In this document: in pieces, positions 3,001-60,086 of the stretch | How the letters are laid out: each line of letters begins with the position of its first letter | How positions within the stretch are numbered: the stretch's first letter is position 1 | NCBI GenBank assembly: GCA_016699615.1 | Contig: CP064984.1 | Span: 2,383,855-2,447,854 of the forward strand | From: Sphingobacteriales bacterium | GTDB taxonomy: Bacteria > Bacteroidota > Bacteroidia > Chitinophagales > JADIYW01 | DNA: 64,000 nt | Reading direction: 5' to 3' | Translations under genes and position numbers: made by a program | Notes under the pieces: generated by a model | What the model saw: the letters and a program-made list of their open reading frames with translations, nothing else | Database searches by the model: none | What the model was told of the DNA's origin: nothing

Positions 3001-6000
3001 CATGAATGCAGACAGTATCTACATAGTAGACTGTGCAGGTTCGATGAACAACAGTGGTAATGTATACACAGTTATCCCAGGTACGACATGTATCGTAGTA
3101 GATAGAAGCGATAAAGTAGGTTACAACTTAGATACATTATGTGTAGTAACAGTAGATACAACGACAGGTATTACAGATACGACAGTAGTAATTATTAGTA
3201 ATACACCGACAAGAGATACTATCAGAGATACGAATGTTATCTATACGACAGACACAATATGTGCGAGCATAGATAATGGTATGAGTAATATCGTAACGAC
3301 GATAGTAGACTGTGCAGGTGCGATGAACAACAGTGGTAATGTATACACAGCATTAGCAGATGGTTGTATTGCGATTACAAGAAGTGGCGTAGTAGGTTAC
3401 AACTTAGATACCTTATGTATAGTTAAGACAGATACAGTAACAGGTATCAGTGATACAACAGTAGCAATTATCAGCAACTTACCGAAACGTGATACCATTA
3501 GAGATACAAATGTTATCATCACGACAGATACAGTATGTGTAGAAGTAGAGTTAGGCATGAATGCCGACAGTATCTACATCGTAGACTGTGCAGGTTCGAT
3601 GAACAACAGTGGTAATGTATACACAGTAATACCAGGCACAACATGTATCGTAGTAGATAGAAGCAATAAAGTAGGCTATAACTTAGATACATTATGTGTA
3701 GTAACAGTAGATACAACGACAGGTATTACAGATACGACAGTAGTAATTATTAGTAATACACCGACAAGAGATACGATCAGAGATACGAATGTTATCTATA
3801 CAACAGACACAATATGTGCTAGTATAGATAATGGTATGAGTAATATCAGAACAACGATAGTAGACTGTGCAGGAGCGATGAACAATAGTGGCAATGTATA
3901 TACAGCGTTAACAGATGGTTGTATTGCGATTACAAGAAGTGGCGTAGTAGGTTACAACTTAGATACCTTATGTATCGTTAAGACAGATACTGTAACAGGC
4001 ATCAGTGATACAACAGTAGCGATTATCAGTAATCTACCTAAGCGCGATACGATTAGAGATACGAATGTTATCATCACGACAGATACAGTATGTGTAGAAG
4101 TAGAGTTAGGCATGAATGCCGACAGTATCTACATCGTAGACTGTGCAGGTTCGATGAACAACAGTGGCAATGTATACACAGTAATACCAGGCACAACACT
4201 ATCGTAGTAGATAGAAGCAATAAAGTAGGCTATAACTTAGATACATTATGTGTAGTAACAGTAGATACAACGACAGGTATTACAGATACGACAGTAGTAA
4301 TTATTAGTAATACACCGACAAGAGATACGATCAGAGATACGAATGTTATCTATACAACAGACACAATATGTGCTAGCATAGATAATGGTATGAGTAATAT
4401 CGTAACGACGATAGTAGACTGTGCAGGCGCAATGAACAACAGTGGCAATGTATACACAGCATTAGCAGATGGTTGTATTGCTATTACAAGAAGTGGCGTA
4501 GTAGGTTACAACTTAGATACCTTATGTATCGTTAAGACAGATACTGTAACAGGCATCAGTGATACAACAGTAGCGATTATCAGTAATCTACCTAAGCGCG
4601 ATACGATTAGAGATACGAATGTTATCATCACGACAGATACAGTATGTGTAGATGTAGAGTTAGGCATGAATGCCGACAGTATCTACATCGTAGACTGTGC
4701 AGGTTCGATGAACAACAGTGGTAATGTATACACAGTAATACCAGGCACAACATGTATCGTAGTAGATAGAAGCAATAAAGTAGGCTATAACTTAGATACA
4801 TTATGTGTAGTAACAGTAGATACAACGACAGGTATTACAGATACGACAGTAGTTATCATCAGTAATACACCGACAAGAGATACGATCAGAGATACGAATG
4901 TTATCTATACAACAGACACAATATGTGCTAGTATAGATAATGGTATGAGTAATATCAGAACAACGATAGTAGACTGTGCAGGAGCGATGAACAATAGTGG
5001 CAATGTATATACAGCGTTAACAGATGGTTGTATTGCGATTACAAGAAGTGGCGTAGTAGGTTACAACTTAGATACCTTATGTATCGTTAAGACAGATACT
5101 GTAACAGGCATCAGTGATACAACAGTAGCGATTATCAGTAATCTACCTAAGCGCGATACGATTAGAGATACGAATGTTATCATCACGACAGATACAGTAT
5201 GTGTAGAAGTAGAGTTAGGCATGGATGCTGACAGTATCTACATCGTAGACTGTGCAGGCGCGATGAACAACAGTGGCAATGTATACACAGTTATCCCAGG
5301 CACGACATGTATCGTAGTAGATAGAAGCGATAAAGTAGGCTATAACTTAGATACATTATGTGTAGTAACAGTAGATACAACTACAGGTATTACAGATACA
5401 ACAGTAGTAATCATTAGTAATACACCGACACGTGATACGATCAGAGATACGAATATTATCTATACGACAGACACAATATGTGCTAGCATAGATAATGGTA
5501 TGAGTAATATCGTAACGACGATAGTAGACTGTGCAGGCGCGATGAACAACAGTGGTAATGTATACACAGCGTTAGCAGATGGCTGTATTGCTATTACAAG
5601 AAGTGGCGTAGTAGGCTACAACTTAGATACCTTATGTATCGTTAAGACAGATACTGTAACAGGCATCAGTGATACAACAGTAGCGATTATCAGTAATCTA
5701 CCTAAGCGCGATACGATTAGAGATACGAATGTTATCATCACGACAGACACAGTATGTGTAGATGTAGAGTTAGGCATGAATGCCGACAGTATCTACATCG
5801 TAGACTGTGCAGGCGCGATGAACAACAGTGGTAATGTATACACAGTTATCCCAGGTACGACATGTATCGTAGTAGATAGAAGCAATAAAGTAGGCTATAA
5901 CTTAGATACATTATGTGTAGTAACAGTAGATACAACGACAGGCATAACAGATACGACAGTAGTAATTATTAGTAATACACCGACACGTGATACGATCAGA

Positions 6001-9000
6001 GATACGAATGTTATCTATACAACAGACACAATATGTGCTAGCATAGATAATGGTATGAGTAATATCGTAACGACGATAGTAGACTGTGCAGGCGCGATGA
6101 ACAACAGTGGTAATGTATACACAGCGTTAGCAGATGGCTGTATTGCTATTACAAGAAGTGGCGTAGTAGGCTACAACTTAGATACCTTATGTATCGTTAA
6201 GACAGATACTGTAACAGGCATCAGTGATACAACAGTAGCGATTATCAGTAATCTACCTAAGCGCGATACGATTAGAGATACGAATGTTATCATCACGACA
6301 GACACAGTATGTGTAGATGTAGAGTTAGGCATGAATGCCGACAGTATCTACATAGTAGACTGTGCAGGTTCGATGAACAACAGTGGTAATGTATACACAG
6401 TTATCCCAGGTACGGCATGTATCGTAGTAGATAGAAGCAATAAAGTAGGCTATAACTTAGATACATTATGTGTAGTAACAGTAGATACAACGACAGGCAT
6501 AACAGATACGACAGTAGTTATCATTAGTAATACACCGACACGTGATACGATCAGAGATACGAATGTTATCTATACAACAGACACAATATGTGCTAGCATA
6601 GATAATGGTATGAGTAATATCGTAACGACGATAGTAGACTGTGCAGGCGCGATGAACAACAGTGGTAATGTATACACAGCGTTAGCAGATGGCTGTATTG
6701 CTATTACAAGAAGTGGCGTAGTAGGCTACAACTTAGATACCTTATGTATCGTTAAGACAGATACTGTAACAGGCATCAGTGATACAACAGTAGCGATTAT
6801 CAGTAATCTACCTAAGCGCGATACGATTAGAGATACGAATGTTATCATCACGACAGATACAGTATGTGTAGATGTAGAGTTAGGCATGAATGCCGACAGT
6901 ATCTACATCGTAGACTGTGCAGGCGCGATGAACAACAGTGGTAATGTATACACAGTTATCCCAGGTACGACATGTATCGTAGTAGATAGAAGCAATAAAG
7001 TAGGCTATAACTTAGATACATTATGTGTAGTAACAGTAGATACAACGACAGGTATTACAGATACGACAGTAGTAATTATTAGTAATACACCGACAAGAGA
7101 TACGATCAGAGATACGAATGTTATCTATACAACAGACACAATATGTGCTAGCATAGATAATGGTATGAGTAATATCGTAACGACGATAGTAGACTGTGCA
7201 GGAGCAATGAACAACAGTGGCAATGTATACACAGCATTAGCAGATGGTTGTATTGCTATTACAAGAAGTGGCGTAGTAGGTTACAACTTAGATACCTTAT
7301 GTATCGTTAAGACAGATACTGTAACAGGCATCAGTGATACAACAGTAGCGATTATCAGTAATCTACCTAAGCGCGATACGATTAGAGATACGAATGTTAT
7401 CATCACGACAGATACAGTATGTGTAGATGTAGAGTTAGGCATGAATGCAGACAGTATCTACATAGTAGACTGTGCAGGTTCGATGAACAACAGTGGTAAT
7501 GTATACACAGTTATCCCAGGTACGACATGTATCGTAGTAGATAGAAGCGATAAAGTAGGTTACAACTTAGATACATTATGTGTAGTAACAGTAGATACAA
7601 CGACAGGTATTACAGATACGACAGTAGTAATTATTAGTAATACACCGACAAGAGATACTATCAGAGATACGAATGTTATCTATACGACAGACACAATATG
7701 TGCGAGCATAGATAATGGTATGAGTAATATCGTAACGACGATAGTAGACTGTGCAGGTGCGATGAACAACAGTGGTAATGTATACACAGCGTTAGCAGAT
7801 GGTTGTATTGCGATTACAAGAAGTGGCGTAGTAGGTTACAACTTAGATACCTTATGTATAGTTAAGACAGATACAGTAACAGGTATCAGTGATACAACAG
7901 TAGCAATTATCAGCAACTTACCGAAACGTGATACCATTAGAGATACAAATGTTATCATCACGACAGATACAGTATGTGTAGAAGTAGAGTTAGGCATGAA
8001 TGCCGACAGTATCTACATCGTAGACTGTGCAGGTTCGATGAACAACAGTGGTAATGTATACACAGTAATACCAGGCACAAACATGTATCGTAGTAGATAG
8101 AAGCAATAAAGTAGGCTATAACTTAGATACATTATGTGTAGTAACAGTAGATACAACGACAGGTATTACAGATACGACAGTAGTAATTATTAGTAATACA
8201 CCGACAAGAGATACGATCAGAGATACGAATGTTATCTATACAACAGACACAATATGTGCTAGTATAGATAATGGTATGAGTAATATCAGAACAACGATAG
8301 TAGACTGTGCAGGAGCGATGAACAATAGTGGCAATGTATATACAGCGTTAACAGATGGTTGTATTGCGATTACAAGAAGTGGCGTAGTAGGTTACAACTT
8401 AGATACCTTATGTATCGTTAAGACAGATACTGTAACAGGCATCAGTGATACAACAGTAGCGATTATCAGTAATCTACCTAAGCGCGATACGATTAGAGAT
8501 ACGAATGTTATCATCACGACAGATACAGTATGTGTAGAAGTAGAGTTAGGCATGAATGCCGACAGTATCTACATCGTAGACTGTGCAGGTTCGATGAACA
8601 ACAGTGGCAATGTATACACAGTAATACCAGGCACAACATGTATCGTAGTAGATAGAAGCAATAAAGTAGGCTATAACTTAGATACATTATGTGTAGTAAC
8701 AGTAGATACAACGACAGGTATTACAGATACGACAGTAGTAATTATTAGTAATACACCGACAAGAGATACGATCAGAGATACGAATGTTATCTATACAACA
8801 GACACAATATGTGCTAGCATAGATAATGGTATGAGTAATATCGTAACGACGATAGTAGACTGTGCAGGCGCAATGAACAACAGTGGCAATGTATACACAG
8901 CATTAGCAGATGGTTGTATTGCTATTACAAGAAGTGGCGTAGTAGGTTACAACTTAGATACCTTATGTATCGTTAAGACAGATACTGTAACAGGCATCAG

Positions 9001-9615
9001 TGATACAACAGTAGCGATTATCAGTAATCTACCTAAGCGCGATACGATTAGAGATACGAATGTTATCATCACGACAGATACAGTATGTGTAGATGTAGAG
9101 TTAGGCATGAATGCCGACAGTATCTACATCGTAGAGGGTGCAGGTTCGATGGACAACAGTGGTAATGTAGACACAGTAGGACCAGGCACAACGTGTATGG
9201 TAGTAGAGAGAAGCAGGAAAGTAGGCTAGAACTGAGATACATTATGTGTAGTAACAGTAGATGCAACGACAGGTATTACAGATACAACAGTAGTAATCAT
9301 TAGTAATACACCAAGCAGAGATACGATCAGAGATACGAATGTTATCTATACAACAGACACAATATGTGCGAGCATAGATAATGGTATGAGTAATATAGTA
9401 ACGACGATAGTAGACTGTGCAGGTTCGATGAACAACAGTGGCAATGTATACACAGCATTAGAAGATGGCTGTATTGCGATTACAAGAAGTGGCGTAGTAG
9501 GCTACAACTTAGATACCTTATGTATCGTTAAGACAGATACAACGACAGGCATCAGTGATACAACAGTAGCGATTATCTCTAACTTACCAAACTGTAAAGA
9601 TATCATTAGAGATAC
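1..9615 (+). repeat. Coding tandem array, at least 17 units of 555 bp (279-bp A subrepeat + 276-bp B subrepeat), continuing past the left edge
   Basis: ATGAATGCCGACAGT recurs at 227, 782, 1337, 1892, 2447, 3002, 3557, 4112, 4666, 5221, 5776, 6331, 6886, 7441, 7996, 8552 and 9107. The B subrepeat (ATGAGTAATATC) lies 279 nt after each. Units are near-identical and the last one degenerates at ~9600. Confidence 0.95.
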
Positions 9616-11806
9616 AGTATTACCATGTAGAGGAGAAGAGGAAGTAGCTTATTGTTTACCATTAGATATGAAAACATTACAACAATACCATATTTACATA
9701 GATGGTACAAAACAAGCAATGGCATTTAGTTCATTAAGTGGTTGTGGTGAAGAGGAAGTAGCTGGTGGTTATAGCTTTAATGCTAATCAATACCTAGATG
9801 GTGTAGGGCATATATTAGAGCGTTGGGGTATAGATAGTAATAGAACTTTATCACCAAATATCAGCTTTACAACATTAGAAGAGTTAGTAGTGTATATGAA
9901 TAGTGTAGATGCTCAAGGCATGTGGTATGCAGAAGATATGATAATCAAAGCAGGTAATCCAAGCAGATTGTATAATACAGGAATAGGACTACAAATCTTT
10001 GCATTAGATCCAAGAGTTGGAACATTCATAAATGAATACAATAGCTATGTTACCTATACAGGAAGTAAATTAATGCTTGATAGAGGTTGTCATATGGTTG
10101 TGTTAGAAGATACAATAACAGGCTGTGTAGACAGTGCTCTAATTTGTGTAGAATGTGTAGAATGTGATAGCATAATAGAAGAGACTTATGTTGAAGTGCC
10201 TTGTGTAAATGGAGAAGGTCAATACTGTTTACCAATTGCATTTGTAGATTTAACAAACTACAATGTTTATATTGATGAGACAAGATTGAATACATTTGAT
10301 ATGAGTGGCTGTGATTATGATACAACAGCAGGGTATGACTTCAGTACACATATCTTATCAGGAGGTTATAACAATGGTGTATTACACAGATTAGATAGTG
10401 TTAGAATAAATGGAGTAAAATATGGTGCATTTAGCTATACATCTTACACTGAGTTAGTAGCTTACTTAAATAGCATAGATCCATTAGGAGCATGGGTAGT
10501 AGATGGAGATAGAGTAGCAGGTGGTCGCCGAGGAGGCATATATGGCGATATGCGTATCTTAAGTACAAATACAGGTGTAAGACATACGGTAGGATACAAT
10601 ATCAATGAATTACCTAAAGGTAGTGAGGTTATCATTCCATCAGGCTGTCATTGGGTAGTAGTAGAGGGCAAGGAGAGTGGCTGTAGAGATAGTGTTCGAG
10701 TATGTGTAGTAGGCTGTACAGTTAAAGATACGATCAGAGACACGACATGTTATAACTGTCCAGTACCAGTATGTGTAGACACAACAGAGTTACCAGGTAC
10801 AGTAATTAGTATTACAACATGTGATACGGATAACAAAGTAACGATAGATGGCTTGAATCCATGTATAACATACACACCATCAAAAGGACAAACAGGTAAT
10901 GATACGACATGTATAGTAGTATGTGATGACAAAGGCTACTGCGATACAACGATTATCATCATTACTGTAGAGACACCAAGAGACACGATAAGAGATAGCT
11001 TACCAGTGAATAGCGTAGATAGTATTTGTGATTTCTTACAACCACGAGGAACAGACATCACAGTAACGAGCTGTGCAGGTCAGACCTCAGGAACAGGAAA
11101 TTACATCACATGGACTATCAACGAGCAAGGTTGCTTAGTATACACAGCAGGTAAAGTAAAAGGTACAGATACCTTATGTATTATGAGCTGCATTACAGGC
11201 ACAGATACATGTATAGAGACTACAGTTTATGTAACCGTAACAGGTATACCACCGATAGCAATTAATAATGACACAACAACGAAAGTTAATGTACCAGTAG
11301 TTATAAATGTTATAGGCAATGATATCCAGACAGACAGTGATCCATTACAATTATGTGATGATGCTATAGTTACATACCCAGTAAATGGAACATTAAGTAA
11401 TATCAATACACCATCAGGAAATGTGACTTATACACCAAATACAGACTTTACAGGAGTAGACAGCTTCCAATATGTGATATGTGATCCAGATGGTAATGAT
11501 ACAGCATGGGCATATGTAAGAATAGTAAGAGAAAATGAGTGTGAGTTGTATGATGCTTTCTCACCGAATGGCGATGGAGTAAATGATTACTATACGATAC
11601 CATGTCCAAGTTCAAGTGCGATAGTATTCTGTGTGTACAACAGATGGGGCATAGAGGTTTACAGAAATGAGGATTACCGAGGCGAGTGGGATGGTAGATA
11701 CAAAGGTGCACCACTTCCAGATGGTACATACTACTATGTTATCAAGTATATAAACAGTGCAGGAGATGATATTAATAAAGCAGGGTTTATCGTTATACAT
11801 AGATAA
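2..11806 (+). pseudogene. Giant T9SS-dependent (type-B CTD) repeat surface protein / adhesin-like, 5' end outside window; ORF broken by 1-nt indels near 4199 and 8080 and by TAG/TGA stops at 9227-9235
   Basis: Frame 2 is open from nt 2. The four ORF-track pieces (227-4207, 4090-8100, 8276-9229, 9386-11806) encode the same 93+92-aa repeat and join seamlessly if the lesions are repaired. The unique C-terminal region has Cys-rich Ig/cadherin-like modules (an ..INNDTTTKVNVPVVINVIGND..DSFQYVICD.. tandem-95-like module) and ends in a CHU_C/T9SS type-B sorting domain. Confidence 0.85.
11531..11803 (+). other. T9SS type-B C-terminal sorting domain (gliding-motility-associated CTD / CHU_C) of the giant protein
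   Basis: The terminal 91 aa are ENECELYDAFSPNGDGVNDYY...YNRWGIEVY...WDGRYKGAPLPDGTYYYVIKY...GFIVIHR. This matches the FSPNGDGxND / NRWG / WDG / G.Y.Y signature of type-B CTDs. Confidence 0.85.
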
Positions 11807-12983: not shown

Positions 12984-15523
12984 ATGAATACAATCAAACA
13001 GCTTAAACGTCAGATATTGCTAGTGCTATTACTAATGGTTATAGGAGTTTCTAGTATAGACGCACAGGTTATCGAAGGAGGCACATCAGGAGCAGGTACC
13101 ACAGTAGGAGGTATAGGCAAAGCCCAGAAGTTGTATAATGATTTAGCTTACTATGAAGCGATACCATTATATGAGAGTTATCTAAAGAAGCACGATAGCA
13201 CAAGAGCGATGTGTGAGCTAGGCGATTGCTACCGATTAACCTCAAACTTTGAGCGTGCAGAATATTGGTATGGCAAGGCAGTAGAGAAAGGCGATGTAGA
13301 ACCGGAGTATAAGTTATACTATGCAAAGATGTTGCAGGCGAATGAGAAATACGAAGAAAGCAAAATGGTATGCTACCTACAAACAGAGTGTTCCAGAAGA
13401 CAAGAGAGCAGGCAATCAGTTAAAAGCGAGTGCAGATTATGGACAGTACTTATTAACGAGAGATAGATATCAGATAAAGAATTTAAGTTTTAATACTTCG
13501 GGTTATGATTTTGCACCCATGTGGTTTGAGAAAGGACTAGTCTATTCTAGTTCTCGAGACAGTTCAAAGGCAATAGGAAGAGAACACACATGGACAGGCA
13601 CACAGTTTTTTGATATGTATTATGTAGAAGGCGAGAAGACGACCTTTGGCAAGCCAAAACAGATGAAAGCAGATGCATCGACAAAATACCACGAAGCAGC
13701 AGCTACCTTTACCCCAGACAATAAGAAAGTATATTTTACGAGAAACAATTATTATCATGGTAAGGCAAAGACGAGTGATGATAAGATAATCAAATTAAAG
13801 ATATTTGAGTCAGATGTAGAAGGTACGACATGGAAGAATGACAAACCATTCCAATACAACAATGATGAATATAGTGTAGGACATCCAGCACTTACACCAG
13901 ATGGTAATACGATGTATTTTATTAGCGATATGCCAGGTGGCTATGGAGGCACAGATGTTTATATTACAAAGAAAGAAGGCGAAAGCTGGAGCACACCCAA
14001 GAACTTAGGCGAGCAGATCAATACAGAAGGCATGGAGATGTTCCCGTATGTATCTGAAGATGGTGTACTATATTTTGCTAGTGATGGACATGGTGGCTTA
14101 GGCGGATTGGATATCTTTAGAGTAAAGCCAGATGCTAAGACAAATCAATATGGTAAGATCAGAAATATAGGCGCACCAATCAATAGTAGTTATGATGATT
14201 TTAGCTTAGTATATGGACAAGACAAGTCAGTAGGTTATTTTACCTCAAACAGACCAGAAGGGCAAGGCTTAGATGATATCTATAGTTTTGAGGATGATGG
14301 TATTTACTTAGAAGGAATTGTAGTAGATGCAAAGACAGGCGAGCCGATATGCAACAGTAAAGTTATAATGAAGGCAAAGCTGACACAGAGTGAAGAAGGA
14401 AGAATGGAAACGGAGTGTGATGGCGAGTTTGAGTTTGGCGTAGTAAGAAACATGGATTATTGTTTTGTTGCGAGCGCAGAAGGATATAGTAGCAATGACA
14501 AAGTATGTGCTACGACAAAAGGTGTAAAAGCAGGCGAGACGGTATATGTAAAAATACCATTAGATAAAGGACAAGAGTATGCTATGAGTGTACAGGTCTT
14601 GGGCAAGAGCTTAAAATCATTACAAAATAAGAGTATAGATAGCAAGAGTCCAACATCACCGAAGAGTATAGACAGCAAGAATATAGAAAACAAAGATATA
14701 GAGAATAAGAGCATAGATAGCAAAAAGTCCAACATCACCAAAGAGTATAGACAGCAAAAGTCCAGAAGACTTAAAGCCACTAGCAGGAGCAAAGATACTA
14801 TTGTCTAGCAAGTGTGAAGGCTGGACCAAAGCGTTGGTAGCAGATGAGAATGGTAAGATATGCGAGATAGTAAGATGTGATTGTGATTATATCATAGTTG
14901 CCAATGCACAAGGCTATTTGCCAGGCTATACAGAAGTTATCAAAGATGATGGCGATTGTAAGATAGACAGAAAGTGTGGAGTAAATCCAAGAGAAGAAGA
15001 AGTAATCTTAGATCCAATACCAGGCATGCCAGATGGCTATGTCTATGATCCAGAGACAGGTAAGTGGGTAGATCCAAAGACAGGCGATCAGATGGATGCG
15101 CCAAGTATAGAATTGAGAGACATTTACTATGACTTTGATAAATGGTACATAAGAGAGGAGAGTGAGCGAGACTTGAATAAGTTATTAGGTTTCTTGCAAG
15201 AGAATCCAGAAGCAATAGTTGAGATAGGCTCACACACAGATGCGAGAGCGCCGTATGATTACAATATCAAGTTATCACAACGCAGAGCACAAAGTGTAGT
15301 AGATTGGTTGATAGCGAGAGGCATTAGTAGAAATAGATTAAAACCAAAAGGATATGGCGAGACAAAGCCAGTGAATGGCTGTACAGATGGAGTAGTATGT
15401 ACGGAGTATGAACACCAGAGAAACAGAAGAACAGAGTTTAAGGTCATAGGTGGTAAATTTGATATTAGCTCACTACAAAGATTTGATATGCAAGTGGATC
15501 CGTGTAAACAATGTCCATTCTAA
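12984..15523 (+). pseudogene. PorE-like OmpA-family protein (TPR + TolB/PD40-like beta-propeller + CRD-like + OmpA_C), split into three ORFs by frameshifts at A-runs near 13362 and 14722
   Basis: ORFs 12984-13466, 13321-14808 and 14801-15523 are contiguous parts of one protein. It has N-terminal TPR, PD40-type repeats (..TPDGNTMYFISD..GGLGGLDIFRV) and a C-terminal OmpA_C (..GSHTDARAPYDYNIKLSQRRAQSVVDWL..NRRTEFKV). Confidence 0.8.
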
Positions 15524-15561: not shown

Positions 15562-15595
15562 ATACAGCGTCCAACACCAGGACGCTGTATCTTTT
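15562..15595 (+). terminator. Rho-independent terminator after the PorE-like gene
   Basis: An 11-bp perfect stem ATACAGCGTCC / GGACGCTGTAT with a 7-nt loop, followed by CTTTT. Confidence 0.7.
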
Positions 15596-15678: not shown

Positions 15679-17396
15679 ATGTCAAATACATATTCAAACA
15701 ATAAGATATCTGGTTCAGAAGCAGTCATTCGTTCATTAGTAGAAGAAGGAATTGATTATATATATGGATATCCAGGTGGAGCAATTATGCCAATATATGA
15801 TGCACTATGGCATTATTCTGATAAAATTACACATATTCTAACAAGACACGAACAAGGCGCAACACATGCAGCAGAAGGTTATGCAAGAGTAAAGGGAAAA
15901 GCAACAGCAGTTTTTGCTACTTCTGGTCCAGGTGCAACAAATTTAGTTACAGGCATAGCAGATGCAATTATGGATTCAACACCAATGGTTTGTATTACTG
16001 GTCAGGTACCAAAACATCTTTTAGGTACTGATGCATTTCAGGAAACAGATGTCGTAGGCATTACAATGCCAATTGTAAAGTGGAATTATCAAGTAACTAA
16101 TGCAGCAGAAATTCCAGCAATTATTGCAAAAGCATTTTATATAGCCAATACAGGCAAACCAGGTCCAGTTTTAATTGATATTACAAAAAATGCACAGTTT
16201 GAGATGATGGAATGGAGTGGATATGAGAAGTGCGAATCTGTAAGAGCATATGATGCAAAACCAGTTATTAATATTGAGAAAATAAAACAGGCAATGCAGT
16301 AATTAATGCAGCAAAGAAACCATTGATAGTTGCTGGTCAAGGTGTAATTATTTCTAAAGCAAAAATAGAATTAGAAGCATTATCTGAAAAATCTGGTATT
16401 CCAGTTTGCTTAACGATGCAAGGCTTAGGTGCTTTTAATCCAAAAGATAAAAACTTTGTAGGCATTCCAGGTATGCATGGCAATTATTCAGTAAATATAA
16501 AAATGAATGAATGTGATGTAATGATTGCCATAGGTATGCGTTTTGATGATAGAGTAACTGGCGATGTGACAAAATTTGGAAAACAAGCTAAAATTGTTCA
16601 TATTGAAATAGACCCAGTTGAGATTGATAAAGTTTTAAAAACTGAAGTTGGTGTATTAGGTGATGCAAAAGAAGTTTTAGAACAATTATTACCATATATT
16701 AATGAAAATAATCATCAAGGATGGATAAATAGTTTCAAAGAATTAGATAAAGCAGAATTGGACAAAGTAATAGATACTGCCATTCATCCAAAAACTGGTG
16801 GTATAAAAATGGGCGAAATCATGCATTTGATTGATGAAAAAACAAATGGAAACGCAATCATAGTTCCAGATGTTGGACAACATCAGATGTATGCCATGCG
16901 ATATTATACATATAATTTGCCAAACTCTTGGGTAAGTAGTGGTGGATTAGGTACAATGGGATTTTCATTGCCAGCAGCAATTGGTGCGCAAATGGCAGCA
17001 CCAGAGAGAACAGTGGTAGCAATAATAGGAGATGGCTGTTTCCAAATGACGATACAAGAATTAGGCACAATTTGGCAACAAAAATTACCAATCAAAATAG
17101 TGATTTTCAATAATAATTATTTGGGAATGGTAAGGCAATGGCAACAATTATTCTTTGATAATAGATACTCGCAAGTAGAATTAAAAAATCCAGATTTTGT
17201 TGCAATTTCAAAAGGATTTGGTATAGCATCATCTAAAGTAGCTGAAAGAGAAAACTTGAGTGCTGCGTTAGATGAAATGTTTGCACATGATGGACCATAT
17301 GTTTTGGAAGTTACAGTAGAGAAGGAAGAAAATTTATTTCCGATGGTGCCAAGTGGCGCAGCATGTAGTGATGTGATTTTAGAACCAGCACAATAA
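15679..17396 (+). pseudogene. ilvB: Acetolactate synthase large subunit (ThDP-dependent), split by a frameshift near 16298
   Basis: N-terminal piece is [32 protein letters not shown]. The frame-0 continuation [16 protein letters not shown] begins at ~16299. The C-terminal piece has GGLGTMGFSLPAAIGA and IGDGCFQM. Confidence 0.85.
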
Positions 17397-20698: not shown

Positions 20699-20702
20699 GC
20701 TA

Positions 20703-21650: not shown

Positions 21651-21675
21651 TTTATTTCCTTCAATCTTATATCAA

Positions 21676-24131: not shown

Positions 24132-24169
24132 AAATATTTTAACTTAATTTGCTTAAATTTGCGTTACTT

Positions 24170-24177
24170 CAAAAGTA
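24170..24177 (-). promoter_or_regulatory. Candidate -7 box (TACTTTTG on the minus strand) upstream of thrA
   Basis: Matches TAnnTTTG about 40 nt upstream of the thrA ATG. Confidence 0.25.
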
Positions 24178-24235
24178 ATAAATAGAATGCTAATATTTAT
24201 GCATACCTTAGTGAATTAAATTAATTTAAAATTAA

Positions 24236-37268: not shown

Positions 37269-37290
37269 CTTCAAGTACTTCAATTTTTAT

Positions 37291-38202: not shown

Positions 38203-38221
38203 ATGAATGAATAACTATTTT

Positions 38222-43419: not shown

Positions 43420-44205
43420 TCATTTTTCATGTTTTATATCGAATAGTTTTTCATATTTATTGAATGATATTTCACTTTGGCTAAATGAAAAATACAATAG
43501 TTTACAATTTTCATCATTAGGATTTTTCTCCAAATATACCACCAAAGACTGCTTTAACATTTTAAAAGGTGTTTTATATTTATTCATTTCATTAAATAAA
43601 TTTTTCTTTAAATAATTATCAATATTTTCACTTTCGTGTAAATATTCAAATAATACAGTCATGCCAAAATCTACATTTATAATATCCAGACATAATGCCT
43701 TAAATTTTGGTGAGTATGTGTCGATTTTTTTATTTAATATTCTATTAGTCAATTCAAATATTGCATATGAAGATTTAAATATTTCGCCTTCATCATAAAA
43801 CATTAAGTTGTCATATAAATGTAATATTCTATTGTATTTACTCAGAGCGATTCCATATTGTTTTTCTGAAAGATTATTTATCTTTTCATCCTCTATGATT
43901 TTAAGTTGAATTTCATTAGCTTTTTTTTGTTCCTTAAATGCTATATAAACTAAAAATGCTGAAAAAAATGCTATTATTGGACCAATAATTCCTCCAATTG
44001 TATGACCTATTTCATTTGGATCTAATATTTCTTTTTCGTTATATAGTAATGAAGTTATTATAAATATAGATGCAACTATTATTATAATTAATATAAAAAT
44101 TAGAATAAAGCTATAAAGCAAGTTGTTTGAAACCCATTCTAAAATATGCTTGTCATTTTCTTGTAATTTTTTTTGATATTTATTAATAAATATTTTCATT
44201 TTCAA
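43420..44205 (-). CDS. Hypothetical 2-TM membrane protein, possibly putAbiC-like (abortive-infection family), inserted between sufB and sufC
   Basis: Two N-terminal TM helices flank ..NEIGHTIGGIIGPIIAFFSAFLVYIAFKEQ.., which resembles the G-x-x-GG-x3-P motif I associate with the putAbiC family. The C-terminus is helical. G+C is lower than in the flanking suf genes. The ATG at 44199 is an alternative start. Confidence 0.35.
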   Translation of the reverse strand: MKMKIFINKYQKKLQENDKHILEWVSNNLLYSFILIFILIIIIVASIFIITSLLYNEKEILDPNEIGHTIGGIIGPIIAFFSAFLVYIAFKEQKKANEIQLKIIEDEKINNLSEKQYGIALSKYNRILHLYDNLMFYDEGEIFKSSYAIFELTNRILNKKIDTYSPKFKALCLDIINVDFGMTVLFEYLHESENIDNYLKKNLFNEMNKYKTPFKMLKQSLVVYLEKNPNDENCKLLYFSFSQSEISFNKYEKLFDIKHEK

Positions 44206-44226: not shown

Positions 44227-45674
44227 TTATCCAACACTACCTTCTAAGCTTATTTCTAATAATTTTCTGGCTTCTACGGCAAATTCCATTGGCAAGTATT
44301 CATTACTTCTTTTACAAATCCATTCACTATCATGGCTACTGCAGTTTCTTGGTCAATTCCTCTCTGTTGAAAGTAGAATAATATGTCTTCGCCTATTTTT
44401 GATGTAGTTGCTTCGTGCTCTACTTTCGCAGATTTGTTACTTACTTCCAAATATGGAAATGTATGTGCGCCACATTGGTTGCCCATTAATAATGAATCGC
44501 ATTGAGAAAAATTGCGTGCATTTTCTGCTTTGCTATGTACTTTTACCAAACCACGATAAGCATTTTGTGATTTTCCTGCAGAAATACCTTTTGATACAAT
44601 TCTGCTTTTAGTGTTTTTGCCAATATGTATCATTTTGGTGCCTGTGTCTGCTTGCTGAAAATTGTTAGTTACAGCAACAGAATAAAATTCTCCAATAGAA
44701 TTATCGCCAGCCAAAATGCAACTCGGATATTTCCAAGTAATAGCAGAACCTGTTTCTACTTGTGTCCATGAAATTTTACTATTATTACCTTTGCAAATTC
44801 CACGTTTAGTTACAAAATTATAAATGCCACCTTTACCATCTTTATCACCTGGATACCAATTTTGTACTGTGCTGTATTTTATTTCTGCATTTTCTAATGC
44901 AATTAATTCAACTACTGCTGCATGCAATTGGTTTTCATCGCGCTGTGGTGCTGTACAACCTTCTAAGTATGATACATATGAACCTTCGTCTGCAATAAGT
45001 AATGTACGCTCAAATTGTCCACTACCAGCTTGGTTTATTCTAAAATAGGTGCTTAGTTCCATTGGACAACGAACACCTTTTTGAATATAACAGAATGAAC
45101 CATCAGAAAATACGGCACTGTTTAATGCAGCATAGTAATTGTCTTTTTGTGAAACAACTGATCCAATATATTTTTGCACCAATTCGCCATGGTCACGTAT
45201 TGCTTCACTCATAGAACAAAATATAATGCCTTTGTCTTTCAATGTTTGTTGGAATGTTGTTTTTACAGAAACAGAATCAAACACAACATCAATTGCTACA
45301 CCAGATAGTCTTTTTTGCTCGTCTAATGATATACCAAGTTTTTCAAATGTTTTTAGTAGCTCTGGATCTACTTCATCTAAACTGTTGAGTTCTTTCTTTG
45401 GTTTTGGTGCAGAATAGTAAATAATATCTTGAAAATTTATTTTTGGAAAATGCACATTTGCCCAAGTTGGCTCAGTCATTTTTTGCCATTGTCTAAATGC
45501 TTTTAAACGCCATTCTAACATCCAGTTTGGTTCTTCTTTTTTTGCAGAAATGAATCTTATGATATCTTCATTTATACCTTTTGGTGTGGTTTCTGCTTCA
45601 ATATTTGTTGTAAAACCGTATTTGTATTCCGAATTTACGACTACATCTAATATTTCATCTTGAGTTTCTTGCAT
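44227..45674 (-). pseudogene. sufB: Fe-S cluster assembly scaffold SufB, with a frameshift about 22 codons from the C-terminus (~44286-44305)
   Basis: Typical SufB throughout. The ORF ends ..[13 protein letters not shown], but the alternate frame gives the canonical tail [22 protein letters not shown] ending at 44227. Confidence 0.9.
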
Positions 45675-48959: not shown

Positions 48960-50149
48960 ATGGAAAATGAAAAGCAGATAATTTATGTACTTACATTTAT
49001 GTGGTTCTGTGCTGTTGTAGACTTTATGCTGATGATGCCATTCGGTGCTGATTTTATGAATATCTATAGCATTCAGCCAAGTCAATTTAGTCTACTCATT
49101 TCTGCATATTCAATTGCTGCTGGTACTTCTGCATTTTTAGCTACATTATATATTGATAGATACGATAGAAAAAAAATATTAATGACTGCATTTTTTCTAT
49201 TTTCATTAGGTAGTATATTTTGCTCATTTGCTGCAAATTTTTATATGATGTTTGTCGCAAGATTCATCACTGGTGCATTTGGTGGAATACTAGGCTGCGT
49301 TACTATTGCTATTATTTCAGATTTAGTACCATTTAGTAGAAGAGGAAAAGCAATGGGCGTACTCAATATGGCTTTTGGTATGGCATCTATTGTAGGCATA
49401 CCGCTAGGTTTATTAATTAGTAAATATTCAGATGTGTTTTTCCCATTTAGAGTTATTGGTGTTCTAGGTTTAATTGTATTCTTTTTGCAAATAGAATTAT
49501 TCCATCATTAGAGAAATACATCAGACAAGAATCTAAAATTAAATTTAATGATATAAAAGATTTAGTATTAGATAAAAATATATTAAATGCATTAGTTTTA
49601 GTCTTCTTTTTAATTGTTGGACATTTTATGTTTATCTCATTTGTTAATCCATATCTAACAGAAAATTTAAAGTTTACTAAGAATGATACTACTTTAATGT
49701 ATGTTGTTGGTGGTTTGTGTGTTGCACTATCATCATCTTATGTTGGTATGCAAATAGACAAGATAGGAAAATATAAATCTTTTGTTATTCTAATCATTTT
49801 GTCATTTATTCCAATTTTGGCAATTGCACATTTACAAAGAGGCAGTTTAGTTTTGTCGCTTGTATTGTGCGCAATGTTGTTTGTATTTAGTTCAGGAAGA
49901 ATGATGGCAGCAATGACTTTATTAACAGGCGCACCAACAGAACAACAAAGGTCAAAGTTTTTAGCAATTCGTTCAGCAATTATTGAGTTTAGCGAAGGTA
50001 TTGCAGTATCTATAGGTGGATTAATTTTATCCAAAAACCAAGTAGACGGCACCATTGAAAATTATTCTATCTTAAGTTATATCACAGTTGTTGTTGGTAT
50101 TCTATGTATATTCTTAGCAAAAAGAGTAAAAATCAGAGAACAAGATTAA
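48960..50149 (+). pseudogene. MFS transporter, split by a frameshift at the T-run ~49482-49486
   Basis: Six TM segments in each half, with ..DRYDRKK.. between TM2 and TM3. The alternate frame bridges the two ORFs (..ANRIIPSLEKYIRQESKIKFNDIKD..GHFMFISF). Confidence 0.75.
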
Positions 50150-50280: not shown

Positions 50281-52025
50281 ATGTATAGATCGCATACTTG
50301 TGGAGAATTACGCATTTCTGATGTTGGCAAAGCAGTCCAATTATCAGGTTGGTTACAAACAACACGTAACTTTGGAGAACTTATCTTTTTAGATTTAAGA
50401 GATAGATATGGCATTACTCAGCTAGTATTCAATCGTGATAATAATCCAATTATTGCTGATAAAATCAAATACCTTGCAAGAGAATTTGTAATTCAAGCAG
50501 AAGGAAAAGTTGTAGAACGTTCTAATAAAAATCCTAAAAATCCTACTGGAGATATCGAAATAATAGTTAATGATTTTAGAATTTTATCTGAGTCTAAAAC
50601 ACCACCATTTACTATAGAAAATGAAACCGATGGTGGCGATGATTTAAGAATGCAATACAGGTATTTAGATTTAAGAAGGGGAGAAGTACAAGAAAAAATT
50701 ATGTTCAGACATAAAGTTGGACATGAAGTGCGTACATACTTAAATGCTAACGGATTTTTAGATATAGAAACACCATTTCTAATAAAATCTACACCAGAAG
50801 GTGCAAGAGATTTCGTGGTGCCAAGTAGGATGAATCCAGGACAATTTTATGCATTACCACAATCACCTCAAACTTTCAAACAATTATTGATGGTTTCAGG
50901 ATTTGATAAGTATTATCAAATTACAAGATGTTTTAGAGACGAAGACTTGCGTGCAGATAGACAACCAGAGTTCACACAAATAGACTGCGAAATGGCATTT
51001 GTAGAGCAAGAAGATATTTTAAATATGTTCGAAGGTTTAATTAAACACGTTTTCAAAACAGTAAAAAATATTGATTTGCCAGAATTCCCACGTATGCAAT
51101 ACGATGATGCTATGAAATTATATGGCAGCGATAAGCCAGATATTCGTTTCGGAATGCAATTCGTAGAAATGAATGACATTGTAAAAGGAAAAGGATTTGG
51201 TGTTTTTGATAATGCAGAATTAGTCATTGGTATTAATGCAGAAAATTGTGCAGAGTTTACACGCAAACAATTAGATGAATTAACAGATTTTGTAAAACGT
51301 CCACAAATTGGAGCAACAGGCTTAATTTATTTAAGATATAATTCTGATGGCACTTTAAAATCTTCAGTAGATAAATTTTATAATGAAGATGAATTGAAAA
51401 AATGGGCAGATGCAGCACAGATGAAACAAGGCGATTTGTTGTTGGTACTATGTGGTAATACAGACAAAGTACGTAAGCAAATGAATGAGTTGCGATTAGA
51501 AATGGGCAACCGTCTTGGATTGAGAGATAAAAACGTATTCAAACCATTGTGGGTATTAGACTTTCCATTGTTAGAATACATAGAAGAAGATAATCGTTGG
51601 TTTGCAATGCACCATCCATTTACATCACCAAAAAAAGAAGACATAGAATTTTTATATACTGATCCAGCTCGTGTGCGTGCAGATGCATATGATTTAGCAA
51701 TTAATGGTGTAGAAGTTGGCGGTGGTTCTATAAGAATTTTCGACAAGCAGCTACAAGCAAAAATGTTTGAACGTTTAGGATTTACAGATGAAGAAGCACA
51801 AAAACAATTTGGCTTCTTAATGAATGCATTTGAATACGGTGCACCACCACATGCGGCTTAGCATTTGGTTTCGATAGATTATGTGCTGTAATGAATGGCG
51901 TAGACTCTATTAGAGATTATATTGCATTTCCAAAAAATAACTCAGGCAGAGATGTAATGTTAGATGCACCAAGCACCATAGACGAAAAACAGATGAAAGA
52001 GCTGAATATAAAGACTATGGTGTAG
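50281..52025 (+). pseudogene. aspS: Aspartate--tRNA ligase, frameshift at ~51853 (GG read as G)
   Basis: Class II motifs (..[18 protein letters not shown]..). The ORF ends ..YGAPPHAA*, while the alternate frame gives the canonical ..[30 protein letters not shown].. Confidence 0.92.
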
Positions 52026-52107: not shown

Positions 52108-52199
52108 TATTTTTAGGATTAAATCCAAAATAATTATGTTTAATTTTGATTGTAATCCAAAATTATTATGTATTTTTAGGATTGAAATCCAAAGTTATG
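52108..52199 (+). repeat. Three tandem ~29-32-nt repeats (TATTTTTAGGATTnAAATCCAAAAnnATTATG); the last supplies the ATPase start codon
   Basis: Copies at about 52108-52138, 52139-52170 and 52171-52199. Each contains a GGATT..AATCC inverted core. Confidence 0.7.
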
Positions 52200-53321
52200 A
52201 TAGTACGCACGCAACTCAAATATGCGCAAGATCGATTATTTAAAGGCAAAGCATTGCTGATTTTTGGTCCAAGACAAGCAGGAAAATCTACTTTCGTAGC
52301 ACAGTTATTGGCTCAGAATAAAAAGAAAAAAGTGTTGCATTTAAATGGCGATGATGACGATACAAGAGAATTGCTTAGAAAACCCAATTCGACCAAACTG
52401 AAAAATATAATAGGAAAGAACGATGTTCTATTTATAGATGAAGCTCAGCGTATCAATGATATTGGAATTGTTGTAAAAATTATTGTTGATCAAATAAAAA
52501 CTGTACAAGTAATTGCAACTGGCTCATCTGCATTTGAATTAGCTAATAAAACCAATGAACCACTAACAGGCAGAAAGTATGAGATGTATTTATTCCCTTT
52601 TTCATTTAATGAATTAGTTGAAGAGTTTGGAATTATAGAAGAAAAACGACAATTAGACCAACGATTAATTTATGGTTCGTATCCTGAAATAGTAGTAAAG
52701 CCTAAGGATGCTGAGGAACATATTAAGCTATTAGCTAGTAGTTATTTATATAAAGATTTATTTAGACTAGAACAATTAGGTAAGCCTGTATTGTTAGAAA
52801 AAATTGTAAAAGCTCTTGCGTTGCAAATTGGAAGTGAAGTGAATTATAATGAATTAAGTCAGTTGGTTGGTGCAGACAACAAAACAATTGAAAAATATAT
52901 AGATTTATTAGAAAAAGCATTTGTGGTTTTCAAATTACCTGCATTGAATAAAAATGTAAGAAATGAAATTAAAAAAGGTAAAAAAATATATTTTTATGAT
53001 AATGGTATTGTAAACGCTATTACTGGAAATTTTTTACCACTACATAGTAGAAATGATGTAGGTGCTTTATGGGAAAACTATGTAATTAGCGAAAGAAAAA
53101 AATATTTATACCAAAAACACTTAGCATACGATACTTTCTTTTGGCGTACCACACAGCAACAAGAGATAGACTATATAGAGAAACATCAAAAAAAGTATCT
53201 TGCTGTTGAAATAAAATGGAACGCAAAGTCTAAACATAAAATTTCTAACACTTTTTTAAATGCCTATCCTTCTGATAATTTGTTGATTACTTCAAATAAT
53301 ATAGAAAATTTCTTGATATAA
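52197..53321 (+). CDS. AAA-family ATPase with C-terminal DUF4143-like domain
   Basis: Walker A GPRQAGKST, Walker B LFIDEAQ. The architecture is typical of the AAA_14 + DUF4143 'ATP-binding protein' family. ATG at 52197 is preferred over the track's TTG at 52146. Confidence 0.75.
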   Translation: MIVRTQLKYAQDRLFKGKALLIFGPRQAGKSTFVAQLLAQNKKKKVLHLNGDDDDTRELLRKPNSTKLKNIIGKNDVLFIDEAQRINDIGIVVKIIVDQIKTVQVIATGSSAFELANKTNEPLTGRKYEMYLFPFSFNELVEEFGIIEEKRQLDQRLIYGSYPEIVVKPKDAEEHIKLLASSYLYKDLFRLEQLGKPVLLEKIVKALALQIGSEVNYNELSQLVGADNKTIEKYIDLLEKAFVVFKLPALNKNVRNEIKKGKKIYFYDNGIVNAITGNFLPLHSRNDVGALWENYVISERKKYLYQKHLAYDTFFWRTTQQQEIDYIEKHQKKYLAVEIKWNAKSKHKISNTFLNAYPSDNLLITSNNIENFLI

Positions 53322-53349
53322 TAGCGTATTAGTGTTATTAATACTAATG

Positions 53350-53443
53350 TTGTCTTTTATGATTTTCCAAAATAAGTATGTTTATTTAGGAATGTAATCC
53401 AAAACTATTATGTTTATTTAGGAATGTAATCCAAAATAATTAT
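53350..53443 (+). repeat. Two to three more copies of the same ~32-nt repeat (TTTATTTAGGAATGTAATCCAAAAnTATTATG) downstream of the ATPase gene, reaching the kdsA stop codon
   Basis: Copies at about 53380-53411 and 53412-53443, plus a degenerate one at 53350-53379. They have the same orientation as the upstream copies. Confidence 0.7.
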
Positions 53444-58791: not shown

Positions 58792-60086
58792 TTAACTTTT
58801 TTTTGATAAAATATCTTCCAAAATAAAAAAGCTGCCAATTATCAAAATTAAGTCATTGTTTTTTGATGCTTTCTTAGCTTGTTGTAATGCATTTTGGGGT
58901 TCAGTAAATGCATTTCCATTTAATTGATGTTTTTTTGCGCTTTCCAGAAGAATATTTGCATCAAGTTTGCGTTCTATTTTAGCTTCAGTAAAATAATATG
59001 TAGCATCTTTTGGCAAAAGTGGAAGTATCTTATCAATATATTTGTCTTTTACGGCGCTATAAATGATATGTAAATGATTGTATTGCTCATTTTTTAATTG
59101 TTCTAATGCATGATTTATGCCATCTTCATTGTGTGCTACATCAATAATTGTTTTAGGATTTTTGCCAATACATTGCCATCGTGCAAGTAATTTTGTATTG
59201 GTACAAACATTACTTAAACCTTGTTCTATATTTTTCTGTTTTATTTTATTTTTTGCATTTCTATTATATATATCTATACTTGATAGAATTGTTTGTATAT
59301 TTTCTACTTGATATTTTCCAGATAAATCAGATTTTATTTTTCTTTCTTTTGATTTTATAGCGTAACGTACCTTATTGTATTTATTATTTTGTTTCGATTC
59401 AATAAGCTTGGTTGTATCTTCACTAAAAAACAATTTTGCATTTTGCTGTTTTGAAGTTTCTATAAATACTTTATCTGTTTCAGCATTTTTTCGACCAATT
59501 ACTACTGGCGTATTTTTTTTAATGATGCCAGCTTTTTCTCTGGCAATTTCAGTAAGCGTATTGCCCAAAATACTTTGATGGTCATATGAAATATTAGTAA
59601 TAACAGACAATTCTGGATGAATAATATTTGTAGAATCCAATCTTCCACCCAATCCAGTTTCTATAATTGCAATATCTACTTTTTTTGTGCAAAATAATGG
59701 AAAGCCATAGCAACTGTAATTTCAAAAAACGATGGCTGAATTTCCTCAATTATTGGCATCAACTTTTGCGTAATTTCTACAACATATTTTTTTGAGCAAA
59801 GTTGCCCATTTATTTTTATTCTTTCTCTAAAATCAATAATATGTGGCGAAGTGTACAAACCAGTTTTGTAGCCTTGTGCCTGAAAAATACTTGCTAAGCC
59901 ATGTGCTGTAGAACCTTTTCCATTTGTGCCAGCAATATGTATCGTTTTTATTTTTTTATGTGGATTGCCCAGAAATGCACACAATTTAATTGTGTTGGCT
60001 AAATCTTTTTTAATTGCTTTTTCTCCTATTTTAGAAAACATAGGTAGCTGTGTATATAAAAAATTTATACTGTCCTTGTATCGCAT
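58792..60086 (-). pseudogene. folC: Folylpolyglutamate synthase / dihydrofolate synthase, split by a frameshift in a homopolymer at ~59680-59686
   Basis: ..HIAGTNGKGST.. P-loop in the upstream piece. ..FAQKK* should continue VDIAIIETGLGGRLDSTN.. in the adjacent frame. Confidence 0.88.

Follow-up and report, generated by a model that had tools for sequence, protein, structure and literature searches.

Frameshifted genes in a 64-kb window of an activated-sludge Bacteroidota genome are very probably residual consensus errors

The frameshifts that break 12 of the approximately 47 genes in the window (the whole stretch of DNA analysed, 64,000 nucleotides of contig CP064984.1) are, judging from sequence comparison, almost certainly consensus errors left over in a MAG that derives from long reads and was polished incompletely, the real genes being intact. 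The organism is an uncultured activated-sludge bacterium of the Bacteroidota. The broken genes are regarded as consensus mistakes because independent assemblies of the species, made from short reads, have them intact; only the window's assembly shows the lesions. A preliminary description had reported at least 12 of about 50 genes as split and had preferred indel errors in the consensus as the explanation. Its gene count agrees with ours, all 14 of the lesions that it listed were present within a few bases of where it had placed them, and its preferred reading is strongly backed by the lesion-free independent assemblies and by repair of the ORFs. That the lesions constitute an artefact, a data-quality problem and not biology, is strongly supported.

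For comparison, 46 short-read contigs assigned to this species were taken from metagenomes of activated sludge sampled in many projects (JGI, ENA, Logan and NCBI). They come from other samples or strains than the window's MAG and show 98.5–100% nucleotide identity to the window, most lesions being flanked by sequence that matches theirs completely or almost so. Comparison with a second assembly, a check proposed in the preliminary description, proved decisive: none of the 52 site-by-contig observations carried the window allele, all of the affected genes were full length in these contigs, and every lesion-bearing gene was a single uninterrupted ORF in all relatives. Contig L125 could be aligned to the window over 5,478 nt with 0 mismatches, the sole gap being the 7-nt lesion in thrA, and L084 over 20.5 kb, where there are 8 mismatches and the 4 gaps are the lesions in sufB, the MFS transporter gene, aspS and folC. 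Contigs L086 and L087 (9.1 and 8.3 kb) each showed one mismatch, at nucleotide 59040, and one gap, both in folC, while the tract at 32,500–37,500 differed from L081/L082 by one mismatch yet contained two frameshifts. In the L125, L084 and L086 alignments the ratio of indels to substitutions at the flanks is far above natural. A chimeric consensus of mixed strains was considered for thrA and rejected, since L125 matches the window without a difference to the left and right of the lesion. The valS product of the window is 100% identical to QQR99342.1, from a MAG labelled 'Sphingobacteriales bacterium', and the closest valS relatives were in Chitinophagales MAGs. Among the matches listed in a contig search of genomes with sufB there were only relatives at 80% amino acid identity or less; a metagenome contig scan with the second MFS fragment matched patterns and confirmed no relative; exact-protein look-ups gave no match for the ORF at 43420–44205, thrB or rpsO, and that with sufC retrieved only a 1.2-kb contig.

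Among the genes on the forward strand, the PorE-like (CHU_0125) OmpA-family gene, which specifies 846 amino acids when intact, contains two lesions: GAAGAAGCGGCAAAA is changed to GAAGAAAGCAAAA at 13359–13360 (-2 nt; 7/7 covering contigs differ), and at 14722–14726 the window has A5 against A4 elsewhere (+1; 3/3 contigs). The intergenic run at 15592–15595 is T4 in the window and T5 elsewhere (-1; 3/3 contigs). In ilvB, the gene for the large subunit of acetolactate synthase (intact 572 AA), GGCAGCTGCAG is replaced by GGCAATGCAG at 16293–16295, a loss of one base plus a miscall (5/5 contigs). The nth gene (endonuclease III; intact 210 AA) possesses A7 at 30705–30711 in place of the true A8 (-1; 2/2 contigs), within a tract of 0 mismatches to other contigs. 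The acyl-CoA dehydrogenase (ACAD; intact 398 AA) has A5 for the true A6 at 34212–34216 (-1; 2/2 contigs) and has also lost an in-frame GCA at 34677–34678 (AGCAGCA to AGCA; 2/2 contigs), which may be either an error or a natural variant. A gain is seen in the FATP-like long-chain acyl-CoA synthetase (intact 602 AA), where the window shows T6 and the true run is T5 (35433–35438, +1; 2/2 contigs). The MFS transporter gene (intact 396 AA) contains T5 for the true T6 at 49482–49486 (-1; 9/9 contigs), and in aspS (intact 581 AA) CACATGGCGGC has become CACATGCGGC at 51853–51854, GG being read as G (-1; 7/7 contigs).

The remaining four affected genes lie on the reverse strand. The aspartate kinase/homoserine dehydrogenase gene thrA (intact 820 AA) carries a complex change of CTTTTGCATCTTTTACAATG to CTTTTATACAATG at 22151–22152, with a net loss of 7 nt (4/4 contigs). 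In sufS (intact 406 AA), CTCTACATGTTCC is changed to CTCTCGTGTTCC at 39678–39679, with loss of one base and, within an ACATGT site, G called for A (2/2 contigs). The sufB lesion (44298–44300; intact 482 AA), CAAGTGGTCCATT to CAAGTATTCATT, combines a loss of one base with two miscalls (GTGGTCC to GTATTC; 2/2 contigs), and folC (intact 416/431 AA) has T7 at 59680–59686 where the true run is T8 (-1; 4/4 contigs). The gene names were confirmed by full-length NCBIfam matches of the intact versions, ten genes being scanned. The description of these lesions as single-base frameshifts is correct for most of them and fails for the PorE-like gene (-2 nt) and thrA (-7 nt). Similarly, two sites had been said to look like GG read as G, but only aspS is a clean example; the lesion in sufB is complex.

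The left edge of the window cuts off a giant adhesin gene of the CHU_C type (T9SS; nucleotides 1–11806, forward strand), the CHU_C domain being called at the 3' end of the gene in contig L113. From position 1 to approximately 9660 it consists of a tandem array, also picked up by TRF, of at least 17 near-identical units of 555 bp (185 AA). The spacing of the units is exactly 555 bp with two exceptions, namely 554 bp for the unit starting at 4112 and 556 bp for that starting at 7996. The former contains the lesion at 4198–4200, in which ACATGTATC is changed to ACACTATC (TG to C, net -1 nt), and the latter that at 8079–8081, in which CACAACATG is changed to CACAAACATG (AA to AAA, +1 nt) and the original reading frame is regained. 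Since short-read assemblies cannot resolve the array, the lesions at 4199 and 8080 are without an external check. In the last repeat unit, 14 substitutions occur between nucleotides 9136 and 9263 of the forward strand, all of them to G (P of all to G approximately 2e-7), and both the array consensus and the independent contig L105 have a non-G base at 14/14 of these positions. The cluster gives rise to two in-frame stops, TAG (9227–9229) and TGA (9233–9235), which had not been remarked upon in the preliminary description. Mutagenesis of the DGR type was rejected as the source of this cluster, since A, C and T alike are changed to G, and not A to N. With the two indels and the 14 G miscalls repaired, the adhesin gene forms a single open frame to 11806, specifying more than 3,935 AA.

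For the other genes, reading frames were repaired by patching the lesion sites alone (12 sites). The resulting ORFs specified 846, 572, 820, 210, 397, 602, 406, 482, 396, 581 and 431 AA, lengths that equal those of the independent gene calls except for ACAD (397 versus 398 AA), which lacks one residue since its 3-nt loss had not been patched. Repair thus gave full-length ORFs with no extra stops, in agreement with the statement that the gene pieces lack secondary decay.

Relative to the other assemblies the window contains 16 indels, 13 deletions and 3 insertions. Fourteen of these window-private indels are frame-breaking, one is intergenic and one is in frame, compared with 0/11 frame-breaking among the natural indel polymorphisms of the assemblies (Fisher 6e-6). 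Per 100 kb there are about 25 such errors, private to the window and mostly frame-breaking. Most sites had been placed in or next to A/T homopolymers; only 7/16 indels, which is not most, are in A/T runs of at least 4 (4–8 nt), and 9/16 are outside runs in this 30% GC genome, though the enrichment is strong, 6/16 falling in A/T runs of at least 5 nt, which account for 4.75% of bases (P=6e-5). Discordance rose with A/T-run length, being 0.12% (4 nt), 0.6% (5 nt), 1.6% (6 nt) and 7.7% (8 nt), with none among the 56 runs of 7 nt. Errors affect only about 1% of the A/T runs of at least 5 nt, an evident sign that the assembly had been polished. Several indels carry adjacent miscalls. The hexamer ACATGT is corrupted at 4/28 sites, twice as ACATGT to ACGTGT (Poisson 1.4e-5, post hoc), and the corrupted contexts are those of both adhesin indels, the adhesin terminal unit and sufS. 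The attribution to homopolymer-type errors thus holds in part, since about half are complex context-specific miscalls, to which substitution errors must be added.

A very different explanation is that the lesions are real: the window's strain would have lost these genes very recently, owing to relaxed selection or a mutator background or because it is becoming restricted to a host or dependent on cross-feeding, while its sister strains kept them intact. The deposited sequence truly contains the lesions, natural frameshift mutations too arise most commonly as homopolymer indels, and the window strain may differ from that of every short-read contig. We consider this explanation very unlikely, since the frameshifts in aspS, sufB, folC and the MFS gene are accompanied by so few substitutions relative to L084, and since the complex change in thrA sits inside a 5.5-kb tract with none. 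Joint loss of AspRS, SufB and SufS would not be viable unless paralogues exist. Nor do the broken genes have an excess of non-synonymous differences (113 synonymous : 21 non-synonymous, i.e. 84% synonymous, with 137 : 59 in other genes) or any secondary stops once repaired; neither raised dN/dS nor secondary decay was found in them from substitution counts and the repaired ORFs. No transposase or gene remnant was seen in the ORF lists of this one window, the Pfam labels of the relatives or the NCBIfam scan of ten genes. The lesions recur in no related strain and are not fixed in the lineage, and the changes of 14/14 bases to G, the repeated corruption of ACATGT and the indels beside miscalls are non-biological patterns. 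The relatives, moreover, live free in activated-sludge communities worldwide. The alternative offered in the preliminary description, recent relaxed selection as in a host-restricted lineage, is contradicted by this habitat, by the predominance of synonymous differences and by the lack of frame-breaking natural indels. Mycobacterium leprae and Sodalis glossinidius have the pseudogene-rich genomes of recently host-restricted bacteria; as in these, about a quarter of the window's genes are split, housekeeping genes included, but the pieces here are undecayed, dN/dS is not relaxed, near-identical strains lack the lesions and the habitat is free-living activated sludge.

Alternatively, the adhesin lesions alone might be real, as phase-variation switches or recombination scars in the 555-bp array, the housekeeping lesions being errors. 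Repeat-bearing surface adhesins are classic contingency loci, and it is the adhesin lesions that lack the external check. This is nevertheless highly improbable, as neither lesion is at a simple-sequence tract, both are in the ACATGT context, further corrupted copies of which are found in the last unit of the array and in sufS, one is a complex TG to C change, and the G cluster in the same gene is contradicted by L105. Phase-variable tract length was not found, the other assemblies agreeing on one in-frame length at each run-type lesion. Tolerance of the frameshifts through programmed ribosomal frameshifting or transcriptional slippage on A/T runs is scarcely credible. Such rescue at poly(A) tracts was reportedly described by Tamas et al. 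in 2008 for some endosymbionts, which the window resembles in its low GC content and in its seven lesions in A/T runs. Efficient slippage typically needs 9 or more A's; the runs here are shorter (4–8 nt), nine lesions are outside any run, and a programmed site should be conserved, but the relatives all show the run at its in-frame length. An Rfam scan of the window revealed no frameshift element and a tRNA scan nothing, so that an explanation through a frameshift element or RNA is not indicated. It is also very unlikely that a minority of the lesions, such as the adhesin frame switches or some A/T-run changes, are real or, in a milder version, that the ACATGT corruption betrays CATG/ACATGT-specific methylation. 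In the first case, a bacterium living free in activated sludge would show phase variation or would very recently have lost genes in this one strain; in the second, an uncultured lineage would possess a CATG/ACATGT-specific DNA methylation system.

Under the preferred explanation of consensus errors, the assembler or polisher would have miscounted A/T runs, usually losing one base, and certain contexts, notably ACATGT/CATG, would have been mis-resolved to give small indels and adjacent miscalls. A G may likewise have been written by the assembler or polisher at 14 positions across one 128-nt repeat stretch, for which polishing inside the repeat with short reads of two-colour chemistry is a guess only. 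Low short-read coverage or strain mixture are candidate reasons for the errors left over after polishing. The use of long reads is indicated by the 2.99-Mb contig and the fully resolved 9.6-kb array of near-identical 555-bp repeats. The bias towards deletions and the motif-specific miscalls, which may reflect base methylation, suggest in turn that the platform was nanopore. Nanopore consensus sequences are known to keep homopolymer indels, leading to frameshifted gene calls unless they are polished with short reads (PMC9262707). The window resembles long-read consensus, especially that of the Oxford Nanopore R9 era, in its private frame-breaking indels, its deletion bias and homopolymer-length dependence, in neighbouring ORF pieces that continue one protein, and in the disappearance of its lesions on short-read comparison. 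That leftover indel errors of long-read consensus fragment gene calls was reportedly pointed out by Watson and Warr in 2019. The window differs from the typical long-read case in that so few A/T runs are wrong, as expected of a polished assembly with leftovers, in that about half of its indels fall outside homopolymers (at ACATGT/CATG and GC-containing k-mers), and, with respect to nanopore, in the local cluster of changes to G. Motif-specific systematic errors of nanopore basecalling at methylated sites are said to have been described by Wick, Judd and Holt in 2019, and the corruption of the palindrome ACATGT, with two identical A to G changes, is similar. Unlike that situation, no methyltransferase gene is found within the window and the ACATGT statistic is post hoc; CATG methylation here is putative.

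A public MAG with an apparently closed 2.99-Mb contig thus carries indel errors at the above density together with substitution errors, and the genes split in the window include aspS, sufB, sufS, folC, ilvB and thrA. Conclusions drawn from this MAG on auxotrophy, pseudogene load, genome reduction or protein families would mislead. Homopolymer-only correction would not fix the assembly, because of the motif-linked errors and the G cluster; public short-read contigs supply the sequence needed to repair the 12 broken genes of the window.

Substitutions that are private to the window are 3 synonymous : 7 non-synonymous, compared with 247 : 73 for natural differences (P=0.0025). Three of them deserve mention, all on the reverse strand. 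At 40206–40207 a miscall changes Ala202 of SufS to Arg in the D-G-A-Q-A motif, which we take to be conserved. In SufB, Pro198 is changed to Gln (45082); the residue is Pro in 5/5 contigs and in 72/72 distant homologs in which the motif was located, from 80 loci listed. The third is an Asp to Tyr change in FolC (59040), where the window reads K-D-K-Y and the relatives K-D-K-D (4/4 contigs). Like the intergenic change at 15592 and the 3-nt loss at 34678, the non-synonymous miscalls at conserved residues were absent from the preliminary description.

Inspection of the window sequence confirmed that all of the frameshift lesions in the preliminary description are present, each within a few bases of the position assigned to it. 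The ORF map showed splits in the PorE-like gene (CHU_0125, OmpA family; 12984–13466, 13321–14808 and 14801–15523), ilvB (15679–16302 and 16323–17396), thrA (22149–24131 and 21676–22110), nth (30520–30714 and 30711–31151), an acyl-CoA dehydrogenase (ACAD) gene (33737–34255 and 34306–34929), an acyl-CoA synthetase gene (34937–35467 and 35559–36746), an MFS transporter gene (48960–49511 and 49628–50149) and folC (59676–60086 and 58792–59652); sufS, sufB and aspS possess frameshifted tails. The explanation preferred at that stage, indel errors in the consensus, is almost certainly correct: independent contigs are intact and their flanks identical. The frameshift load is not a biological feature, and the result serves chiefly to caution users of this public genome.

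Independent short-read contigs of the same species (46) were retrieved by exact-protein look-ups with intact window proteins (those of valS, sufC, kdsA and sufD, a radical-SAM protein, PorP, a CofH-like protein and an acyltransferase). The source assemblies (JGI, ENA, Logan and NCBI) span many projects on activated-sludge metagenomes, and the contigs are 98.5–100% identical to the window and jointly cover 8229–64000. In their gene calls the affected genes are all uninterrupted, specifying proteins of 846 (PorE-like), 572 (ilvB), 820 (thrA), 210 (nth), 398 (ACAD), 602 (acyl-CoA synthetase), 406 (sufS), 482 (sufB), 396 (MFS), 581 (aspS) and 416/431 (folC) amino acids. NCBIfam gave end-to-end matches for the named families: aspS, sufB, ilvB, thrA, nth and the acyl-CoA synthetase matched equivalog models with scores above the curated cut-off, sufS and folC matched subfamily models, and PorE and ACAD scored below the cut-offs. 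The comparison with a second assembly, which the preliminary description had proposed, found the window allele in 0 of 52 site-by-contig observations (14 lesion sites, from 13360 onwards). Twelve short patches from the relatives' sequence restored single ORFs with the lengths found in the independent assemblies, except for ACAD (397 versus 398 amino acids, a 3-nt loss being left unpatched), and the pieces, as had been claimed, show no secondary decay after this repair.

Relative to the other contigs the window is a mosaic, with zero-difference kilobase tracts alternating with 2–8% divergence, mostly at the third codon position; the majority of the lesions lie inside zero-difference tracts. One contig (L125) matches the window base for base over 5,478 nt, with the sole exception of a 7-nt gap in thrA. 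Over 20.5 kb, another (L084) has 8 substitutions and 4 gaps relative to the window, and these gaps are exactly the sufB, MFS, aspS and folC lesions; L086 and L087 (9.1 and 8.3 kb) each show a single substitution and a single gap, both of them in folC, and L097 (5.6 kb) two substitutions and the ilvB gap. Between 32.5 and 37.5 kb a single substitution distinguishes the window from L081/L082, but there are two frameshifts and a 3-nt loss. Over 20000–38300 against L081/L082, and at other loci, zero-difference tracts of 2–5 kb alternate with 2–8% divergent ones, with, for example, 41 mismatches in 31500–32000 and 31–36 in 25000–25500. Frequent homologous recombination between co-existing strains could account for such a mosaic.

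Sixteen indels, 13 deletions and 3 insertions, are window-private; one is intergenic (15592). A/T runs of at least 5 make up 4.75% of bases and hold six of the 16 (P=6e-5). The discordant fraction broadly climbs with A/T-run length (0.12, 0.6, 1.6 and 7.7% at lengths 4, 5, 6 and 8), the exception being length 7 (0 of 56 runs). Nine of the 16 are not homopolymer miscounts, and most of these combine an indel with adjacent miscalls, which is unlike simple mutations; examples of such complex changes are GCAGCTGCAG to GCAATGCAG, CTACATGT to CTCGTGT, GTGGTCC to GTATTC (sufB), GAAGCGGC to GAAAGC and CTTTTGCATCTTTTAC to CTTTTATAC. Fourteen of the 16 break the frame, versus none of about 11 natural indel polymorphisms (Fisher 6e-6); the natural ones, which either vary from one short-read assembly to another or fall in tracts of natural divergence, are all intergenic or leave the frame unchanged overall. 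Since natural indels never break the frame, selection against frameshifts is strong in the population, a constraint that the indels of the window do not follow.

From position 1 to approximately 9660 the window contains at least 17 near-identical 555-bp (185 amino acid) units in tandem, mostly 96–99% identical to the array consensus and each made up of a pair of diverged halves, about 277 bp long. They form part of a T9SS (CHU_C) surface-adhesin gene that exceeds 3,900 codons and ends at 11806; porP/sprF and the PorE-like gene follow it. Unit spacing is exactly 555 bp except at units 4112 (554 bp) and 7996 (556 bp), and the frame is open from the window edge to 11806 once two indels and 14 G's are repaired. 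A 'GTAATACCAGGCACAAC' subtype is found at units 227, 3557, 4112, 4666, 7996 and 8552, and unit variants recur in blocks, which suggests higher-order duplication. Near-identical 555-bp arrays are beyond short-read assemblers; since the array is resolved, and within a 3-Mb contig, the assembly was probably built from long reads. Homopolymers of C, and likewise of G, reach at most 4 nt (six runs each in the whole window), the expectation per base, estimated by hand from base composition, being about 26 runs of 4 nt and about 5 longer ones; G/C runs may be naturally avoided, or they may have been under-called systematically.

Errors recur at ACATGT/CATG. Of the 28 ACATGT palindromes, four are corrupted (4196, 8081, 9191 and 39688), in two cases to ACGTGT, versus 0.14 expected (P ~1e-5, a post hoc statistic); further errors of this context are at 51848–51857 and 34671–34684, and CATG is within 4 nt of five of the nine non-homopolymer indels. 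Judged by the general behaviour of nanopore reads, these errors fit systematic miscalling by the basecaller, perhaps linked to methylation; no methyltransferase gene is present in the window. In repeat unit 1337–1891 the ACATGT site at unit position ~89 reads ACATAT (conserved Cys to Tyr), and in unit 6331–6885 that at position 85 reads GCATGT (Thr to Ala); these single-base changes, in an array outside the reach of the independent assemblies, may be additional miscalls.

Two classes of substitution had escaped the preliminary description. In the last adhesin repeat unit, a 128-nt stretch (9136–9263) contains 14 substitutions from A, C and T, all to G, creating in-frame stops at 9227–9229 and 9233–9235; both the array consensus and an independent contig (L105) have non-G bases at these positions, and the cluster has the appearance of a G-biased artefact of polishing or base-calling. 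Elsewhere, window-private substitutions number 3 synonymous and 7 non-synonymous versus 247 and 73 natural ones (P=0.0025). The non-synonymous changes (45082, 40206–40207, 59040, 21196, 39946, 63301 and 34654) are contradicted by all covering contigs and indicate substitution errors in addition to the indels. Three of them are at conserved positions: SufB Pro198 to Gln (45082), at a residue that is Pro in 72 of 72 homologues; SufS Ala202 to Arg (40206–40207), within the motif DGAQA; and FolC Asp to Tyr (59040), so that DKD reads DKY.

Real, very recent pseudogenisation is contradicted by the identity of the flanks to independent contigs, by the free-living wastewater habitat from which the relatives all come and by error patterns that are non-biological. 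The relaxed selection offered earlier as the alternative was not borne out, the broken genes showing 113 synonymous and 21 non-synonymous differences versus 137 and 59 in other genes. Programmed frameshifting or transcriptional slippage fails because the frameshifted architecture is conserved in no relative. Phase variation could in principle explain the two adhesin sites, which are out of reach of short reads, but both are at the error-prone ACATGT context and not in a simple-sequence tract. Consensus error of the kind seen here is well documented: unless accurate reads are used for polishing, indels left in a long-read consensus break up gene calls (PMC9262707), and the split genes of the window are a case of it. 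Unlike in the textbook unpolished case, errors affect only ~1% of the window's A/T runs of at least 5, half of all errors depend on sequence context and not on homopolymers, and changes to G are locally clustered.

The window is part of a low-GC Bacteroidota chromosome (29–32% GC over most of its length, ~38% in the first 16 kb), in which scans found no tRNA genes and no Rfam matches. The valS product (25684–28320, minus strand) is 100% identical to QQR99342.1, the valine–tRNA ligase of a MAG labelled Sphingobacteriales bacterium, encoded on a contig of 2,986,948 bp, its next-best matches being at most 81% identical and from Chitinophagales MAGs. The suf cluster (sufB, sufC, sufD, sufS) is broken by two genes, also found in other assemblies: 42139–42498, between sufD and sufC, specifies a 119 amino acid four-helix-bundle protein of the '23S rRNA intervening sequence protein' type, and 43420–44205, between sufC and sufB, a 259 amino acid hypothetical membrane-anchored protein. 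Short 32-nt tandem repeats sharing the core TCCAAAATAATTATGT lie on either side of an AAA_14/DUF4143 ATPase gene (52113–52193 and 53366–53443), and at 53316–53365 one independent contig (L085) has a different, longer sequence. The region with its flanking repeats may represent a small cassette that is mobile or variable.
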